Shown: positions 1,825-51,397 of the stretch, one piece after another
Numbering within the stretch: position 1 is the first letter of the stretch
Layout of the letters: every line of letters begins with the position of its first letter
Origin: a bacterium
GTDB taxonomy: Bacteria > Zixibacteria > MSB-5A5 > GN15 > FEB-12
DNA length: 64,000 nucleotides
Direction of reading: 5' to 3'
NCBI GenBank assembly: GCA_043811375.1
Contig: JBDRNJ010000068.1
Span: forward strand, 18,936 to 82,935
Notes under the pieces: model-generated
The model's input: only the letters and a program-made list of their open reading frames with translations
Databases searched by the model: none
What the model was told of the DNA's origin: nothing
Program-made: the position numbers and the translations under genes

Positions 1825-3222
1825 ATGGACTACAAAACCCGAACTAAGATCCGCTCGATTATTCTGGATGAAAAGATACCGGTCGATACACCCGTTACCG
1901 TGCTGGGACTGGTGCGCACGATCAGGATCGGTAAGGATGTGGCTTTTGTTGAGGTCAATGACGGTTCCTGCCTGGAAAACATCCAGGCAGTGATCGGGTC
2001 GCCGTCAGAGTTTCCGGTATTGCAGCAGATTCTAACCGGCGCCGCTGTGAGCATCCACGGCCGATTGATACTTTCGCAGGGAAAGGGTCAGAAGTATGAG
2101 GTCGCGGTCACATCCCTGGAACTGGCCGGGGTTGCCGACACCGACTACCCGCTGCAGAAAAAACGCCACAGTTTTGAATTTCTCCGAGAGATCGCCCACC
2201 TGCGTCCACGCACCAACACTTTCGGAGCCGTCGCTCGTATACGTTCCCGGATCGCCTATGCCATTCACCAGTACTTTCAGCAACGCGGCTTTTTCTATAT
2301 CCATTCACCGGTCATCTCGGCCTCCGATGCCGAAGGGGCCGGCGACCTGTTTCATGTCTCGACCCTGGATTTCAAGAACGTGCCTCTCAAGGATGGCGAG
2401 ATCGACTGGGACAGTGACTTCTTCGGAGCGGAAGCCTTCCTGGCCGTCTCGGGACAATTGGAAGCCGAACTGATGGCGGCGGCACTGGGCGATGTCTACA
2501 CGTTTGCACCGACCTTTCGGGCCGAAAACTCCAACACCAGTCGTCATGCTTCGGAGTTCTGGATGATCGAGCCGGAGATGGCCTGGGCCCAACAGGACGA
2601 CAACATGGACCTGGCCGAGGATTTCCTCAAGTCCCTCTTCCGCTGCGCGCTGGAAGAATGCAGCGAGGACATGGACTTCTTCGGCAAATGGATCGACAAA
2701 GAGGTCCGCCGGACCCTGGAGGGAGTTGTTGCGGCTCAGTTCGAACGAGTCAGTTATACCGAAGCCGTCAAGATTCTGCAGGCGACCAAACAGAAGTTCG
2801 AATACCCGGTTGAGTGGGGACTTGAACTTCAGACCGAACATGAGCGCTACCTGACGGAGAAAACTTTCAGCAAGCCGGTCATCGTCTATGACTACCCGGA
2901 ACAAATCAAGGCCTTCTACATGCGTCTCAACGACGACGGCAAAACCGTTCGGGCTATGGATGTGCTGGTGCCCCGGGTAGGGGAAATAATAGGTGGCAGC
3001 CAGCGTGAAGAACGGCACGATGTCCTTAAGCAGCGGATGAAGAGCAAGGGTTTTAACAATCTGGAAGTGTACGACTGGTACCTGGACATCCGCAAATGGG
3101 GCACCATGCCGCATTCGGGATTCGGGTTGGGGTTTGACCGGGTGCTTATGTACATCACCGGTATGACCAACATCCGTGACGTGCAAGCCTTCCCCCGGGT
3201 GCCGCGATGGGCGAAGTTCTGA
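1825..3222 (+). CDS. asnS: Asparagine--tRNA ligase
   Basis: OB-fold anticodon domain, [50 protein letters not shown]. Start chosen at ATG 1825 after GGAG. Confidence 0.97.
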
Positions 3223-3278
3223 CCGGCAGCGAGGTACGTAGTCTCTAAGATGAAACATCTTTCAGGAGGAAACGCAAC

Positions 3279-4202
3279 ATGCTGACCGGAATACACTTCC
3301 TGCTGACCTACGCCTGCACTTTTGAGTGCGACCACTGCTTTCTATACAGCAGCCCGCGGGCACAGGGGACTTTCACGCTGGATCAAATGCGGCGCACGTT
3401 CGATGAAATCGACCGTATCGGCACCATCAAGACGGTTTACTTCGAAGGTGGCGAACCGTTTCTATATTATCCCCTGATGGTCGAAGGTTTCAGAATCGCT
3501 CGTCAACGGGGCGTCAAGGCATCCGCCGTCAGCAACGCCTACTGGGCAACATCGGTCGAGGACGCCGGACTCTGGCTGAAACCGCTGTGCGAACAGGGTA
3601 TCGCCGGTATCAGCCTGAGCGATGACCTGTTCCACCATGATTCCGAAGAGGAAAGCCCCGCCAAAAAGGCGTACGTTGCCGCCACTGAACTGGGCATAGA
3701 CGCCGGTACCATCTGTATCGAGGAACCAAAGGTTGTGAAACCGGGCGAAGGGCAGGAGAAGGGTGCGCCGGTCATCGGCGGCGGCGCCATGTTCAAGGGG
3801 CGAGCGGTGGAAAAACTGATCACCGGATTGCCAGGGCGACCCTGGCAGGAATTAACCAGTTGCCCTCACGAAGAACTTCAGGATCCGGAACGAGTTCACC
3901 TTGACGCCTATGGCCACGTGCATATCTGCCAGGGAGTCAGCATGGGCAACATGTGGGAGACGCCGCTGTCGGAGTTGGTCAAACGATATGATGCTGACAA
4001 GCACCCCGTCTGCGGCCCCCTGATCAAAGGCGGACCGGCACAACTGGCCAAGGAGTACGATGTTGAACATGAGGACAAGTACGTGGACGAGTGCCACATG
4101 TGTTACCTGGTGCGCCGGGCGTTGATTGACAGGTTTCCGCAGTATCTGGCACCAAAACAAGTGTATGGACTGGAAGACAACGAATCTTCTGACGACAGTT
4201 AA
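3279..4202 (+). CDS. Radical SAM protein, function unknown
   Basis: CxxxCxxC motif (YACTFECDHC), FEGGEPFL, extra C-terminal Cys/His cluster (ECHMCY), SD AGGAGG. Confidence 0.88.
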   Translation: MLTGIHFLLTYACTFECDHCFLYSSPRAQGTFTLDQMRRTFDEIDRIGTIKTVYFEGGEPFLYYPLMVEGFRIARQRGVKASAVSNAYWATSVEDAGLWLKPLCEQGIAGISLSDDLFHHDSEEESPAKKAYVAATELGIDAGTICIEEPKVVKPGEGQEKGAPVIGGGAMFKGRAVEKLITGLPGRPWQELTSCPHEELQDPERVHLDAYGHVHICQGVSMGNMWETPLSELVKRYDADKHPVCGPLIKGGPAQLAKEYDVEHEDKYVDECHMCYLVRRALIDRFPQYLAPKQVYGLEDNESSDDS

Positions 4203-4345
4203 ACGTTAGTAAATCATCCCAGACGCAACTTGCACATCTACTGTGGAGTTTGGCAGGGCACAACCCGAAGTGGTTGTGCCGATCGTAACGTACGTACGGC
4301 AGAACAACTAAAAGGTACTGCCCTCGACCACATAAGATCGCGTAT

Positions 4346-5545
4346 ATGACCGGCTATACCAAATCACTCCTCGCACTGGTGGTATCCCTGATCGCACTGC
4401 AATCAGTCGTGATCGGTGTGGCCGGACTGGATCGGCCGTACTGGGGAGATGAGTCCCACTTTGTGCCGACGGTGCGGGAGTTTGGTGATGAGATCAGTCT
4501 TGACCGGTTGAAGCACTACAACGAAATGTCCGGTCCGCTGCCGTTTGTCGTATACGCCCTCTGGGGTCGAGCCTTCGGTTTTGAAATCCACGTCCTGCGT
4601 ATCCTTTCGGTCATCATAGCCCTGTTGACCGGCCTGGTCTTTCACCGCCTGCTGTACACCGTGACGGGAAAACCGATGGTTTCGGTTCTGGGGGCGGTGT
4701 TCCTGGCAGGGCATCCGTATATGGTCGGGTTCAGCATTTTTGTATTCACCGACATGCTGCCGATCCTGCTGCTGATACTGGCCTGCCTGGCGCTGGTGAA
4801 ACACAGTGCGGGTGCATTCGCTCTGGCGGCAGCCGGTGCGCTCCTGTGCCGTCAGTACTATATCTTTTTGCCGTTGGCGGCGGCGGCGTATGCATTGATG
4901 GGAGTCATACGCGGCCATGAAAGCACTGGCGGCCAATCAGCAGCACAATTCGCGAAGCGGCTGTTGGTCGCCGGTCTTTTTTCGGTGGTACCGCTGGGGT
5001 TGTTGTTTCTATTGTGGCAGGGAGTCAGTCCGGACAATGAACTGAGAGCGCACTATCTTGAGCAGGGGCTTACTTTCCACCTGAATTACCTGGTGATGTA
5101 TGTCTGCCTGCTGTCGATCTACCTGCTGCCGGTTGTGGTTGCCAGGTGGCGCTGGTTCTATCGTGATCGACGCACAAACGTGGCGGCCCTGATCGTCTCA
5201 TGGCTTTACTGGTTGTTTCCGGTGACGGCGTCACCGCACGCGCTGGCTATCGATGTTGACACGGTCGGTCTCTTCCACCGCTTTCTCCGCTGGATCGGAG
5301 GAAGCACCTTCGAGCAAATCGTTTTCTACTTTGGCTTCCTGCTGGGTTTGCCGATTTTGATCTGGCTCATCCGTGACTGCTTGACACGCATCAGGCGACG
5401 TCAGTATGATCTACCGTTATTTCTTGATCTGGCGGTGCCGGCTTTCCTGGTGATTATGCCGTTTTCGTATTTGTGCTGGGAGAAGTACTTCCTGCCGATG
5501 GTGCCGTTGTTGATCGTGCGACTGCTTCACCGCGAGGCGGCATAG
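4346..5545 (+). CDS. GT-C fold / ArnT-PMT-like polytopic membrane glycosyltransferase
   Basis: N-terminal TM helix followed by WGDE..F acidic motif, about 10 hydrophobic segments, C-terminal EKYFLP. Confidence 0.7.
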   Translation: MTGYTKSLLALVVSLIALQSVVIGVAGLDRPYWGDESHFVPTVREFGDEISLDRLKHYNEMSGPLPFVVYALWGRAFGFEIHVLRILSVIIALLTGLVFHRLLYTVTGKPMVSVLGAVFLAGHPYMVGFSIFVFTDMLPILLLILACLALVKHSAGAFALAAAGALLCRQYYIFLPLAAAAYALMGVIRGHESTGGQSAAQFAKRLLVAGLFSVVPLGLLFLLWQGVSPDNELRAHYLEQGLTFHLNYLVMYVCLLSIYLLPVVVARWRWFYRDRRTNVAALIVSWLYWLFPVTASPHALAIDVDTVGLFHRFLRWIGGSTFEQIVFYFGFLLGLPILIWLIRDCLTRIRRRQYDLPLFLDLAVPAFLVIMPFSYLCWEKYFLPMVPLLIVRLLHREAA

Positions 5546-5621
5546 AATCGGAAGTGTTTCCGGTATAAATTCTTTTCCGTCGCTGCACTACGATTACATT
5601 CATTAAATAAGAGTAACGTTG

Positions 5622-47521: not shown

Positions 47522-47722
47522 ACCAAACCTCCCGCAATGGTTCTGTTTAGCTAAGTATAACTGTTTATTATTGTTTGTCAAGTGATATTAGTGGTTGTTA
47601 GTAATTATTTGTGTTTGAGGGTGGCGTTTGAGCATATGGATGGGGCTTGACTTTTGGGTAGTGGGTCATTATGAGCTAACGCACTGAATTAGTGCACAAT
47701 TTGAATCTAACAGGAGATTATC

Positions 47723-47917
47723 ATGTCAGACAAGTATTACACAATAGAGCAGCTACAGAGACTGCTACAATCTCCCGAAATTACCGAGAGGTTTCGCAAG
47801 CAGATTGAGGCTGTGCTTAAAGACGGCTCACGGGCTGCGATAGAGTCACTGGGCACCACATGCGCGGCGGCGTCTACTTCAGGGGCCGACCAAGAGCGGC
47901 AGCAAGCTCCCGAATAA
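47723..47917 (+). CDS. Small hypothetical protein (IS cargo)
   Basis: 64 aa, SD CAGGAG 7 nt upstream; no recognised family. Confidence 0.45.
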   Translation: MSDKYYTIEQLQRLLQSPEITERFRKQIEAVLKDGSRAAIESLGTTCAAASTSGADQERQQAPE

Positions 47918-48068
47918 GGGTGTTAGTGTGCTCAAACGGTAAGACAGCTACAATACAGCCACACGAGGAGCATACTATTGCTTGATAACGGTGATTTGAG
48001 TTTGTCGGTTCAAATTCGCTCATGCTGAAAAGCCTGCTGTCACACTTCGGGCAAGCTGGAAGCGCCAT
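47874..48068 (-). CDS. Small zinc-ribbon-like protein (IS cargo)
   Basis: CPKC...CSSC, strong SD AAGGAGG. Confidence 0.65.
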   Translation of the reverse strand: MALPACPKCDSRLFSMSEFEPTNSNHRYQAIVCSSCGCIVAVLPFEHTNTLIRELAAALGRPLK

Positions 48069-48158
48069 ACGTTTTCCCTCCTTGATTTGATTGATTTGTG
48101 CCGCTGAACATAATAGCCCCTGATCTGTTCTTTGACAACTTAATCAGTTGGTAGTGTC

Positions 48159-48992
48159 CTAATTTGAATCTTCAGCAGGTAGCTCACTCTTTTCTGTTAT
48201 TTCTTTCTTCTGCTTCGCCTCTAACTTCTTTATAGAAGGTTCAGGCGGCAAATCCTCTGGCATAGTCCCGCCGAGTTTGGAAATTGTCTCTCTAACAGTC
48301 CGACCTACTTTTTTGTGAGTCTCACGTGCCCCAATGTCGCCAGCGACATTTTCGTGCCTCAAGGCTTGTTCGGTTTGAGTGATTCTAAACTCATTAGCCG
48401 CAAGCTCTGCGCGGCCAGACCGATCCAGTAAGTTATCAGCCTTTGATAACCCCTTGTAGCCCTTGACCTCTTTCAGACTCATACCGTAAAGCCCACGATA
48501 CCCAGCGTCCTGGAACAACCCCCAGCGGAGCACGCCGGAGTCCTTGGCGGCATCGCCTAAGTGCTTATTGGCATCCTTGACACGCTCTCTCAATTCGATA
48601 CGTTTTACCGCTTCAACTTGGCTTTCCAAAATCTCTTGCTTACGCGTTTGGATAGCGAAATAGCTCTGTGCGGCAGCTACTTGCGGTAGCTTAGGGCTTC
48701 CGTTCATTGCTATCAAATAGGCGCCATAGCGTGACACAACATAGTCTCGGCGTGACCTCTCTGCGCCACTTCCAATGCTGACCTTTTTCCCGACATCAAG
48801 AAATTGGTTACTCGGGTCACTACCCAAGGACTCGCAGGCCATCTTTGCTCTTTCAATCACACGCTCAAAGTTGTCCCACTTCGTATAGCCAAGTGGGGCC
48901 ATTAGGTCCCGCGCCATCCAATACTCTATCCCCTTGGAGGTCAGCCGCTTAATCTGGTCCAAGGAGGTCTGAACTTGACTTACAATATCCAT
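48159..48992 (-). CDS. dinD: DNA damage-inducible protein D family (BRO-N-like N-terminus), IS cargo
   Basis: EYWMARDLMAPLGYTKWDNF, SRYGAYLIAMNG.P, AQSYFAIQTRKQE, FQDAGYRGLYG, ELAANEFRITQT, GGTMPEDLP. Confidence 0.9.
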   Translation of the reverse strand: MDIVSQVQTSLDQIKRLTSKGIEYWMARDLMAPLGYTKWDNFERVIERAKMACESLGSDPSNQFLDVGKKVSIGSGAERSRRDYVVSRYGAYLIAMNGSPKLPQVAAAQSYFAIQTRKQEILESQVEAVKRIELRERVKDANKHLGDAAKDSGVLRWGLFQDAGYRGLYGMSLKEVKGYKGLSKADNLLDRSGRAELAANEFRITQTEQALRHENVAGDIGARETHKKVGRTVRETISKLGGTMPEDLPPEPSIKKLEAKQKKEITEKSELPAEDSN

Positions 48993-49154
48993 GTCTACCT
49001 CGCCTTAGTATGAGGAAATATAAACTCTTAGGGGCAATATCGCAAAACGGGAAAACAATGTCAAGACAATTTCTCCACATATTTCCACATATTACCAACT
49101 TTCCACTTGCGCCCATGTTTGTAATGTAGTATATTCGTTTCGGAGGTAACAAAT

Positions 49155-49565
49155 ATGAACGTCGAAAAAGATATTGAGCGCAAGATCAAGCAGAAAGAAG
49201 AAGCGGTTCAAGGACTTAGGGATCAATTGCTTAGAGCGGAGTCATACTTGGAGGCATTAAAGGACTCGCTGCACATGGTACAGAAAAAGTCAAGTGTTGC
49301 GAATGGTGATACAATTAGGCCGGGTAGCATGGTTCATAAGGCTCTAACCGCTCTTCGCAATGCCAAGAAGCCCATGCACGTCAACGAGCTATTGCAACAT
49401 ATGGGAAAGGAGCCAACGAAAAAGAACAGAACTTCGCTTAGTGGTTCACTTGGATTCTACGTACGACAGGAAATGGTCTTTACGAGACCTGCCCCAAATA
49501 CCTTTGGTCTCGTAGAGTTTGAGGCTCCGACAGAAGAAGAACTACCCGACTCCTTCGGGACTTAA
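49155..49565 (+). CDS. Coiled-coil plus winged-helix (HARE-HTH-like) protein, IS cargo
   Basis: N-terminal heptads; KPMHVNELL...SLSGSL..YVR...FTRPAPNTFGL; SD GGAGG. Confidence 0.75.
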   Translation: MNVEKDIERKIKQKEEAVQGLRDQLLRAESYLEALKDSLHMVQKKSSVANGDTIRPGSMVHKALTALRNAKKPMHVNELLQHMGKEPTKKNRTSLSGSLGFYVRQEMVFTRPAPNTFGLVEFEAPTEEELPDSFGT

Positions 49566-49571
49566 CAACAA

Positions 49572-49598
49572 AAGGCCGGTAGCAGCAACTACCGGCCA
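49572..49598. terminator. Hairpin, probable terminator, after the HTH cargo gene
   Basis: GGCCGGTAG-CAGCAA-CTACCGGCC perfect 9-bp stem with an A-run on the 5' side. Confidence 0.5.
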
Positions 49599-49869
49599 AA
49601 TCGAGAATATGACCTACTGGCTTCATAGGAACATTCTCATATGAGAATCTACGACATAAATCCCCGTTTGTCAATTGCTAATACGCGGGCACGCTCGCCA
49701 CCAAGCTCGAAAGAAAGGGAATCGGGAGGGGTCTAAAAGCCCCTCCCCCATAAACGCCCGCCCGGTGCGCGAACACCGGGACGGGGCAACTTAAACCATG
49801 CGGGGTGAGCCGCATAGCCAAGCCTAATAGTAATATCGGCTCTCTCGCAGAATATGTCAAGAGAGAACC

Positions 49870-50689
49870 GATGAACAGACTCAAACCTGAAAGGCAGAGC
49901 TTAGTGCTTGACCTACTCGCAGAAGGTAATTCAATCCGTAGCATAGTCCGAATCACCGGAGTCTGTAAGAATACCATAGTCAGACTTATGCGTGAAACTG
50001 CTCAGAATTGCGGAGAGGTGTTGAATGCCGAAATGAGAAATCTGCACCTTGAGTCAATCGAATGTGACGAGATTTGGACTTATGTAGGCAAGAAACAAAA
50101 GAAGCTCAAAGAAGGGGACAAGGAAAAGGGGTTCGGCGATCAGTACGTCTTTGTAGCTTTGGACAGGAAAACCAAACTGGTGCCTCAATATCTGGTAGGC
50201 AAGCGCAATGGCTTCAATGCGTGGGTGTTTATGCAGAACCTAAGACGGCGGGTGTCAAACACGCCTCAGATTACAACCGATCAGTTTGCGGCATATCAGG
50301 AAGCTGTGCTCTCCGCTTTCGGAGTGGGTGTACACTATGCTATGCTCCGCAAGGTCTATCATGGTGACGGCTCCGGGCGCGAAGGGTATAGCCCAGCGGC
50401 CCTCAAAGGGGTACGCATAAAAATTAGAATAGGACGACCAAGCAGAGATAAAATAAGCACGTCATTCGTGGAAAGGCAAAACCTGACCATGAGGATGCAG
50501 ATGAGACGATTTGCCAGGCTGACTAATGCCTTCTCAAAGACACTTGAGAATCTTGAGGCGGCCTTAGCCTTGCATTTTTACCATTATAACTTTATCAGAG
50601 TCCATCGGTCACTCGGAATGACACCCGCAATGGCCGCTAAGATAACCGATACAAAATGGAGTTGGAAGGATGTATTACCGTCAAAATGA
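49870..50689 (+). CDS. IS1-family DDE transposase (single ORF)
   Basis: HTH (EGNSIRSIVRITGVCKNTI), IECDEIWTYVGKK, ITTDQFAAY, STSFVERQNLTMR..MRRF.RLTNAFSK, HYNF.R.H..L..TPA. The stop codon lies inside the right TIR. Start at MNRLKP is approximate. Confidence 0.9.
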
Positions 50690-50763
50690 CCCACTACCGA
50701 CTTTTAGGCAAAGTCATTGAACATTACAGTATTGTAGGTCGGAACCCTTTAGCGGTTCCGCCG

Positions 50764-51397
50764 ATGCTGATCTAATGGCAGGACCGCGTATGGTGTAAAG
50801 GTTCACTATGTATTCTAAGCGTATCACACTCAATATATTGACAATGTTGGTATTTATGCTGCTCATCGGTTGTATCATTGGTTCGACATATTACAAGAGT
50901 TTTCTCATTCGTGGCAGCCCTTTCTATCCAGACCCTGATGTTGACTTCGACTCGTTCTCTGCTAGTATTATTATAGTAGCCGGGATTTCACGCAAGCCGG
51001 TTACCGACAGTTCTTATTACATGCATTTTAGAGTTACACCGGCTGAAGTGACTGAAGAAGAGAACCTCCGCTTTCTGGAGAACCTTTCTTTGCTTGGCTT
51101 CTCGGTTGAGTTTGTGGGGAGTGATCAGGTGTTACCTGAGCTGCCTGTATTGGAAGACACAATCAGCACCTGTGGTTCTCTGACAAGTAACCATTGCCGG
51201 TACTTCAGATTCGGACGACATGTTATCCCAACAGCGGTGGACACGATAAGTGTGTACTTGTCGGTGCAATACACGGACAGCATTGGAGATGTGCAAGTGG
51301 CGGATACAGTTGTGAACATGTGGAGGTCGGATGCTAAACATACGGGCGTAATTGACCATTAGGTCAGGATAGTCAATGTTGATCTAATGGCAGAACC
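50764..51397 (+). repeat. 22-bp direct repeats flanking an orphan gene
   Basis: ATGCTGATCTAATGGCAGGACC (50764-50785) and ATGTTGATCTAATGGCAGAACC (51376-51397), 20/22 identical. Confidence 0.7.
50808..51362 (+). CDS. Hypothetical exported or membrane-anchored protein
   Basis: 184 aa with an N-terminal hydrophobic segment (possible lipobox LLIGC); AT-richer than the flanks. Confidence 0.65.
   Translation: MYSKRITLNILTMLVFMLLIGCIIGSTYYKSFLIRGSPFYPDPDVDFDSFSASIIIVAGISRKPVTDSSYYMHFRVTPAEVTEEENLRFLENLSLLGFSVEFVGSDQVLPELPVLEDTISTCGSLTSNHCRYFRFGRHVIPTAVDTISVYLSVQYTDSIGDVQVADTVVNMWRSDAKHTGVIDH

Follow-up and report, generated by a model that had tools for sequence, protein, structure and literature searches.

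A 64-kb stretch of contig JBDRNJ010000068.1 (hereafter the window), from a bacterium of the Zixibacteria lineage, contains an insertion sequence (IS) of the IS1 family with passenger genes, which occupies positions 47657–50698 and is 3,042 bp long. It is very probably a transporter-type element with a single-open-reading-frame (single-ORF) transposase, and very probably arrived as a unit in the intergenic DNA upstream of a membrane-protein operon with duplication of an 8-bp target. In the mechanism we envisage, the transposase would bind the two GGTAGTG... ends, move everything between them and make staggered target cuts 8 bp apart. The passengers are two self-contained two-gene cassettes.

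The termini are well defined. The outer left inverted repeat (IRL) and the reverse complement of the right inverted repeat (IRR), GGTAGTGGGTCATTTTGA, are identical at 17 of 18 positions and form the longest inverted repeat in the region. IS1-family ends in ISfinder begin with GGnnnTG, target duplications in the family measure 8–9 bp, and the family includes single-ORF and ISMhu11 subgroups; both termini of the element start with GGTAGTG and fit this pattern. The 8-mers that flank the repeats match at seven of eight positions and represent the 8-bp target duplication. The transposase stop codon (TGA, 50687–50689) falls within IRR, and the ∼2.1 kb between IRL and the transposase leader (47675–49743) is non-transposase DNA containing four ORFs. 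The G+C content is 48.1% inside the element and ∼55% in the flanks, a low value that is a foreign composition. The initial annotation had described the 18-bp terminal inverted repeats, the flank duplicated at 7/8 positions, a single-ORF IS1-type transposase and its stop codon inside the right repeat, and each of these was reproduced; the passenger genes it had placed between the left repeat and the transposase were also found, in a stretch slightly longer than the ∼1.9 kb it had given.

One explanation would dispense with a transposon altogether, taking the inverted repeat and the flanking 8-mer as chance matches round an ordinary gene cluster that contains a transposase gene. An imperfect (7/8) duplication and the failure to recover an empty site (see below) are what it would lead one to expect, but a search with a degenerate 18-mer allowing up to three mismatches returned just the IRL and IRR sites in the window, where 0.06 would be expected by chance. 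Moreover, the repeats start with the family GGTAGTG and are placed as in 64 relatives, with IRR over the transposase stop and an 8-bp duplication outside, and the G+C content falls by 7 points exactly within the span. The 18-mer expectation and the 64 relatives effectively refute chance matching, to which we assign a negligible probability.

The transposase starts at ATG 49871 and is identical to the database protein P0001, which is likewise 272 amino acids long. GTG 49805, the start of the mechanically called ORF, was rejected as the start of the gene; 49805–49870 is a conserved non-coding leader. The protein scores 29.8 bits against Pfam DDE_Tnp_IS1 (PF03400; gathering cut-off 24.1), and its best NCBIfam family is transpos_IS1 (69.7 bits, E 3e-19), although this match, over residues 17–168, misses the curated cut-off of 100 of the IS1 model NF033558. 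D66, D137 and E201 are retained, as is every residue that is at least 93% conserved among 61 relatives, and the motifs CDEIW..., TTDQF... and VERQNL...FSK resemble those of InsB of IS1. Public data contain more than 7,900 homologues at E < 1e-30, many of which are named 'IS1 family transposase' (NCBI, JGI).

Classical IS1 has two ORFs, insA and insB', which are joined by a −1 frameshift, and a zinc finger in InsA. With E. coli IS1 the element shares an IS1-type DDE core, GGnnnTG ends, an 8-bp target duplication and an N-terminal helix-turn-helix (HTH), the last recognized by weak profile matches. It differs in having one ORF, no insA/insB' frameshift and no zinc finger (the first 60 residues of the transposase contain no Cys pair), in being three times the size of IS1 owing to its four passenger genes, and in possessing a structured leader with an outward promoter. 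Because it is encoded by a single ORF with no frameshift and has no N-terminal zinc finger, the transposase is not classical IS1, and from its sequence the element is assigned to a distant IS1 branch.

Related elements carry diverse cargo

Relatives were sampled at 80 loci (L018–L097) encoding transposases 47–61% identical to that of the window element, from Ignavibacteriota, Bacteroidota, Acidobacteriota, Desulfobacterota, Zixibacteria, Alphaproteobacteria and others. Each locus was scanned for GG[TC][AG]NTG-type ends bracketing the transposase, and an element was taken as delimited when its ends matched at 14 or more of 20 positions and the flanking 8-mers at 7 or more of 8. Such ends with an 8-bp duplication were found at 64 of the 80 loci, and the duplication was perfect in 59 of these 64. 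The delimited elements are 1,772–5,597 bp long (median 3.2 kb), and none is a bare IS; at 1.8–5.6 kb, every one therefore carries cargo. This cargo is highly varied, as 329 non-transposase ORFs fell into 240 similarity clusters, mostly without a Pfam match. Small zinc-ribbon genes like the one in the window element occur in 6 of 65 family elements and were rejected as a family feature.

Two further relatives reside on plasmids of cultured strains. The Mesorhizobium loti plasmid element (L115) has ends matching at 20/20 positions (GGTAGTGGGTCAGTTTGAAA) and the duplication CGCTGGTG, and the Acidiphilium multivorum plasmid element has ends matching at 19/20 and a duplication matching at 8/8. In both complete plasmids the coding sequence is annotated as 'IS1 family transposase' and no mobile-element feature is recorded. 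Public annotation thus overlooks this transposon class, in which just the coding sequence is labelled.

Since its ends are reproduced in relatives, the element is typical of an IS1 clade whose members carry cargo, and it is an ordinary representative of a cargo-carrying IS group that is both very widespread and poorly catalogued. The suggestion of a mobile gene-shuttling IS1-family unit is borne out by these 64 relatives with the same ends, 8-bp duplications and varied cargo; terminal repeats that recurred in no other copy had been named in advance as the observation that would speak against it.

In its organization the element resembles the transporter IS (tIS) of ISfinder and TnCentral, with one transposase, short terminal inverted repeats, direct target repeats and unrelated passengers. 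The features by which a tIS is recognized, namely IS-like ends, a transposase and dispensable passengers, are all present, and both passenger cassettes occur in other settings (see below). The TnCentral preprint restricts tIS to IS1595 and IS66, whereas the window element belongs to the IS1 type, as do over 60 relatives whose ends could be delimited.

Many short elements of the family (L056–L093, from Acidobacteriota, and L018, L020, L024 and L088) contain an ORF of 130–220 amino acids that encodes a coiled coil and a winged helix. The ORF has the orientation of the transposase gene, is placed between the leader and the left end of the element, and matches Pfam HARE-HTH in 5 of 21 cases. Profile iteration revealed no link among these ORFs upstream of family transposases, and they may represent an accessory gene or recurrent cargo. 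For the window element, a role of its HARE-HTH gene as a conserved transposition accessory was rejected, this gene being the partner of dinD at IS-free sites. On another contig, the source genome contains a truncated relative of the transposase (G000:C60:14438-14680; L003 909–972 and 1528–1743), which is 42–44% identical over the N-terminal 72–81 amino acids. Near it is an abutting pair of degenerate family ends with 30 bp between them.

Table 1. Features of the element and its borders (positions in the window).
Feature	Position	Strand	Remarks
Left target-site duplication	47649–47656		GACTTTTG; 7/8 match to 50699–50706
Outer left inverted repeat (IRL)	47657–47674	+	GGTAGTGGGTCATTATGA
Passenger ORF, cassette 1, first gene	47723–47917	+	64 amino acids
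Passenger CxxC...CxxC zinc-ribbon protein, cassette 1, second gene	47874–48068	-	64 amino acids; weak zinc-ribbon matches
Inner left-end sequence	48150–48167	+	GGTAGTGTCCTAATTTGA; 17/17 identical to the family consensus terminal repeat
Passenger dinD-like gene, cassette 2, first gene	48159–48992	-	277 amino acids; Bro-N domain
Passenger coiled-coil and HARE-HTH protein	49155–49565	+	136 amino acids; divergent partner of dinD
Terminator-like GC-rich hairpin with T run	49574–49597	-	second at 49724–49747
Conserved regulatory module before transposase	49744–49876	+	covariance models R1, R2
Hairpin 1	49757–49786		terminator-like on minus strand; AAA 49752–49754 (plus) is the U tract
Plus-strand helix	49807–49812 / 49837–49842	+	GAGCCG / CGGCTC
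Outward promoter	−35 49860–49855; −10 49837–49832	-	TTGACA, GATATT; spacing 17
Shine-Dalgarno-sequestering hairpin	49837–49846 / 49861–49870		CGGCTCTCTC / GAGAGAACCG
Single-ORF IS1-family DDE transposase	49871–50689	+	272 amino acids; Pfam DDE_Tnp_IS1
Right inverted repeat (IRR)	50681–50698	-	TCAAAATGACCCACTACC; contains transposase stop
Right target-site duplication	50699–50706		GACTTTTA

Passenger cassettes and an inner left end

The four passenger genes are arranged as two pairs, a small ORF with a zinc-ribbon gene (cassette 1) and a dinD-like gene with a HARE-HTH gene (cassette 2). The cassette 1 genes are convergent and overlap by 44 bp. The first had no match in Pfam, NCBIfam, PADLOC or PHROG. 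The zinc-ribbon gene is preceded by a promoter-like site (48138–48110, minus strand) and has two homologues in a large protein collection, the closer of which is 76% identical and lies on a metagenome contig (L117). There it again overlaps convergently with a homologue of the 64-residue ORF (65% identical), and the pair lies just within the left end of a second family element (2680–5601 of that contig). This element has GGGTCAG-type ends (GGTAGTGGGTCAGTTTG) and a transposase 47% identical to that of the window element, and in place of dinD and HARE-HTH it carries a Fic gene and a gene for a 92-residue basic protein. The copy with different cargo that the initial annotation proposed looking for is thus exemplified by an element that shares cassette 1 and has Fic in place of dinD. 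The GGGTCA-type end of IRL is present in this element and also in the M. loti plasmid element.

In cassette 2, the dinD product scores 304.6 bits against the DinD equivalog of NCBIfam (NF008573; cut-off 242) and 327.5 bits against PADLOC PDC-S13 (PDLC04919; residues 5–268), and also matches Pfam Bro-N. Its 136-residue partner scores 27.9 bits against Pfam HARE-HTH (cut-off 25.9). The two genes are separated by a 162-bp intergenic promoter region, which contains a promoter-like site for dinD (TTGACA-17-GATATT, 49064–49036, minus strand) and direct TTCCACATATT repeats (49073–49095). A 16-nt inverted repeat (49006–49021/49079–49094) is also located between the genes; like the direct repeats it is operator-like, and such a region would suit a regulator-effector pair. 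E. coli DinD is an inhibitor of RecA filaments. The passenger is akin to E. coli DinD and PDC-S13 in that it matches the equivalog over its full length as well as the PADLOC model, and differs in being paired with a divergent HARE-HTH gene and borne on a transposon.

The pairing is not confined to the transposon. Among the closest retrievable dinD homologues (64–66% identity), all five loci (L119 4416–5840, L120 2354–3778, L121, L122 4389–5828 and L123 1591–2997) have a divergent gene for a protein of 137–150 amino acids, 56–60% identical to the HARE-HTH protein. At none of the five were family ends found near the pair or a transposase nearby, and the loci represent at least three gene neighbourhoods: after dprA-ptsH (before ptsI where the contig extends), between rpmA and clpC, and beside a hydrolase gene. 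The module can thus form an island among housekeeping genes, as it does between ptsH and ptsI. Occurring at IS-free sites, dinD/HARE-HTH is therefore an autonomous two-gene module that was picked up by the transposon. The pair is probably an effector with its own regulator, and by its PADLOC match (PDC-S13) it is a candidate anti-phage or defence module. The element illustrates how small cassettes of defence or regulatory type, dinD/HARE-HTH among them, are acquired and carried between distant bacteria.

A third family-type end, overlooked in the initial annotation, lies inside the element, in front of cassette 2. Its sequence is that of the commonest family end, which a dozen related elements have exactly (17/17) on both sides and many others on one side. 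The inner end has the same orientation as the outer IRL and is the only other such sequence in the source genome. The dinD stop codon occupies its positions 10–12, and in three relatives (L049, L067 and L071) a minus-strand ORF also ends at element position 10. The closest relatives of the transposase leader mostly have TGTCCTAAT-type (consensus-type) ends, and the GGGTCA-type elements L115 and L117 have no match to the leader model.

The last transposition used the outer pair of ends, because the inner end matches IRR at 13 of 18 positions and has no flanking duplication (AATCAGTT and the right 8-mer agree at 2 of 8). It could still be argued that the functional or ancestral unit is an inner element, 48150–50698 (2,549 bp), and that the outer 493 bp with IRL are a remnant of another element. 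The inner end is, after all, a perfect family consensus, dinD adjoins it in the way that cargo ORFs adjoin the left ends of other elements, the leader is of the type associated with consensus-type ends, and family elements do land side by side: among 67 empty sites rebuilt from relatives (L018–L097, L115 and L116), the right flank starts, straight after the duplication, with the left end of another element, in tandem head-to-tail, in four (L028, L057, L079 and L093). We nevertheless consider the inner unit very improbable, as IRR matches the outer IRL at 17/18 and the inner end at 13/18, the 8-bp duplication is 7/8 around the outer pair versus 2/8 around the inner pair, and in L117 cassette 1 stands beside a GGGTCA-type IRL as the normal left part of a complete element.

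With the outer pair taken as the ends of the element, the inner end suggests that cargo was accreted by nesting or recombination, and tandem insertion could plausibly give rise to composite or mosaic elements. The window element is probably a mosaic of GGGTCA-type outer ends with cassette 1 and a consensus-type left end with cassette 2 and the leader, although a comparison of transposase identity by thirds did not separate the end types in the C-terminal third and so neither confirmed the mosaic nor excluded a hybrid gene. A consensus-type element with dinD/HARE-HTH would have nested into, or recombined with, a GGGTCA-type element with cassette 1, and the redundant right part would have been deleted afterwards, in an order of events that we infer.

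The leader of the transposase gene

The transposase gene is preceded by a conserved, structured module. A first covariance model, made from six sequences, gave 12 further matches, 11 of which lie directly upstream of a transposase gene, and a second model placed the module directly before the transposase at 53 related loci. No Rfam match to the leader was obtained at E ≤ 1. In the module alignment 89.5% of the cells are paired and 22 of 22 pairs show compensatory double changes, compared with 28–40% paired in a control whose partners were slid by 1–3 columns; the alignments used for these counts were fitted to the model, which biases the figures towards the structure.

The strand of each helix can be read from its mismatches. 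Hairpin 1 pairs better on the minus strand, because its non-Watson-Crick cells comprise 42 A-C versus 11 G-U, and on that strand a conserved U tract comes after it, as in a terminator; the GAGCCG/CGGCTC helix belongs to the plus strand, because there G-U cells exceed A-C cells by 13 to 3. The −35 and −10 boxes of the outward promoter are the most conserved letters of the module (TCAA and AT.T.G) and are spaced 16–18 nt apart in 44 of 51 sequences. Between CGGC and the ATG, the sequences of the seven closest relatives form an 8–10-bp hairpin that buries the purine-rich ribosome-binding site (RBS), with compensatory changes from one sequence to another. The 5' arm of this hairpin and the 3' strand of the plus-strand helix have bases in common.

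This conserved leader module probably represses transposase expression. The RBS-sequestering hairpin is predicted to hold transposase expression down, and pairing of the upstream strand with the 5' arm of this hairpin would keep the RBS open. From the outward promoter, an antisense RNA of ∼70 nt ending at hairpin 1 would be made and would sequester the anti-sequestering strand; with that strand tied up, the RBS hairpin would close and transposase synthesis would stop. The predicted arrangement is reminiscent of RNA-OUT of IS10/Tn10 in its outward promoter near the 5' end of the transposase gene, its short antisense RNA and its RBS-occluding hairpin. Unlike RNA-OUT, the predicted antisense RNA covers the upstream anti-sequestering strand and not the start codon, and the transposase family is unrelated.

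Insertion site and state of the element

The element lies upstream of the membrane-protein/HTH/motAB operon, and the initial annotation had suggested that the insertion may have altered the promoter of this operon. This suggestion is not upheld. The membrane-protein gene starts at ATG 47521. Between this ATG and the element is the predicted promoter of the operon, which is the highest-ranking sigma-70-like site in the region (TTGACA-16-TATACT, 47581–47554, minus strand; 11/12 positions); it is untouched, and 67 bp separate it from the duplication. When the operon is compared with its counterparts in related genera, DNA similarity stops at ∼47598, before the insertion point. In the source genome the promoter of the neighbouring operon is apparently undamaged by the insertion.

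The family as a whole has a marked target preference. The 67 rebuilt empty sites were tabulated for −35-like hexamers, and TTG[AC]NN was found to start exactly 7 nt from the duplication in 36 of them, 13 on the right and 23 mirrored on the left; no other offset of TTG[AC]NN exceeds four sites. Given this fixed 7-nt offset, the family therefore inserts at a set position just upstream of promoters. The window copy does not follow this promoter-proximal rule, as no TTG[AC]NN occurs 5–9 nt from the duplication on either side, and the inner end also fails it (offset 3).

For the window element, joining of the flanks (ATGGATGGGGCTT GACTTTT(G/A) GGCAAAGTCATTGAAC) gives the expected empty site GGGGCTT-GACTTTT(G/A)-GGCAAAGTC. 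Besides the missed NCBIfam cut-off, the unconfirmed mosaic and the bias in the pair counts, the following points weigh against the interpretation developed here. The empty site was not found in nine genomes of the same family that have the membrane-protein gene, all of which belong to other genera, and in these neither DNA similarity nor synteny crosses the insertion point, so that the comparison is uninformative. There was no second or near-identical copy of the element anywhere searched: it is single-copy in the source genome (genome-wide search), and the nearest other transposase in the protein collection is 64% identical. With no near-identical copy, recent activity is unproven. The ends contain one mismatch and the duplication another, which suggests some age. 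In addition, the antisense RNA and the switch are predictions made from sequence conservation alone.

Several of these points would also suit an immobile fossil, that is, a former transposon now fixed and decaying whose cargo is kept by the host for its function. The element is single-copy in its genome, no near-identical copy exists among 5.8 billion proteins, the ends and the duplication each have one mismatch, and the truncated relative with abutting degenerate ends indicates that family members decay in the source genome. We regard this as unlikely, since the transposase gene has an uninterrupted reading frame in which all family-invariant residues are retained, the leader module scores 112.9 and 128.9 bits, among the best (it is itself among the sequences from which the models were built), and ends matching at 17/18 are within the range of relatives with perfect duplications. 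The description of the element as intact, given in the initial annotation, holds for the transposase; it does not extend to the one inverted-repeat position and the one duplication position that have diverged, nor is there a second copy.

An inserted, transporter-type element thus remains the preferred reading, and beyond it we tentatively suggest, with some reservation, that the family may constitute an undescribed and very large IS1 lineage in which all sampled members carry cargo, which homes 7 bp upstream of sigma-70 −35 boxes, is governed by an antisense-RNA/RBS-sequestering switch and builds its cargo by nesting or recombination. If this is true, the inner consensus left end would be a fossil of accretion caught in the act, and possibly a usable alternative end. 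The interest at the family level lies in the constant 7-bp spacing from −35 boxes, the predicted antisense/leader switch with its conservation, and the cargo in all sampled members. These features of the wider lineage appear undescribed in the literature searched, in which nothing relevant was found on ISMhu11, IS1 passenger genes or PDC-S13.

Outside the element, ∼30 bp to the right of its end, a hairpin that begins with GTAG (GGAACC...GGTTCC) occupies window positions 50736–50775.

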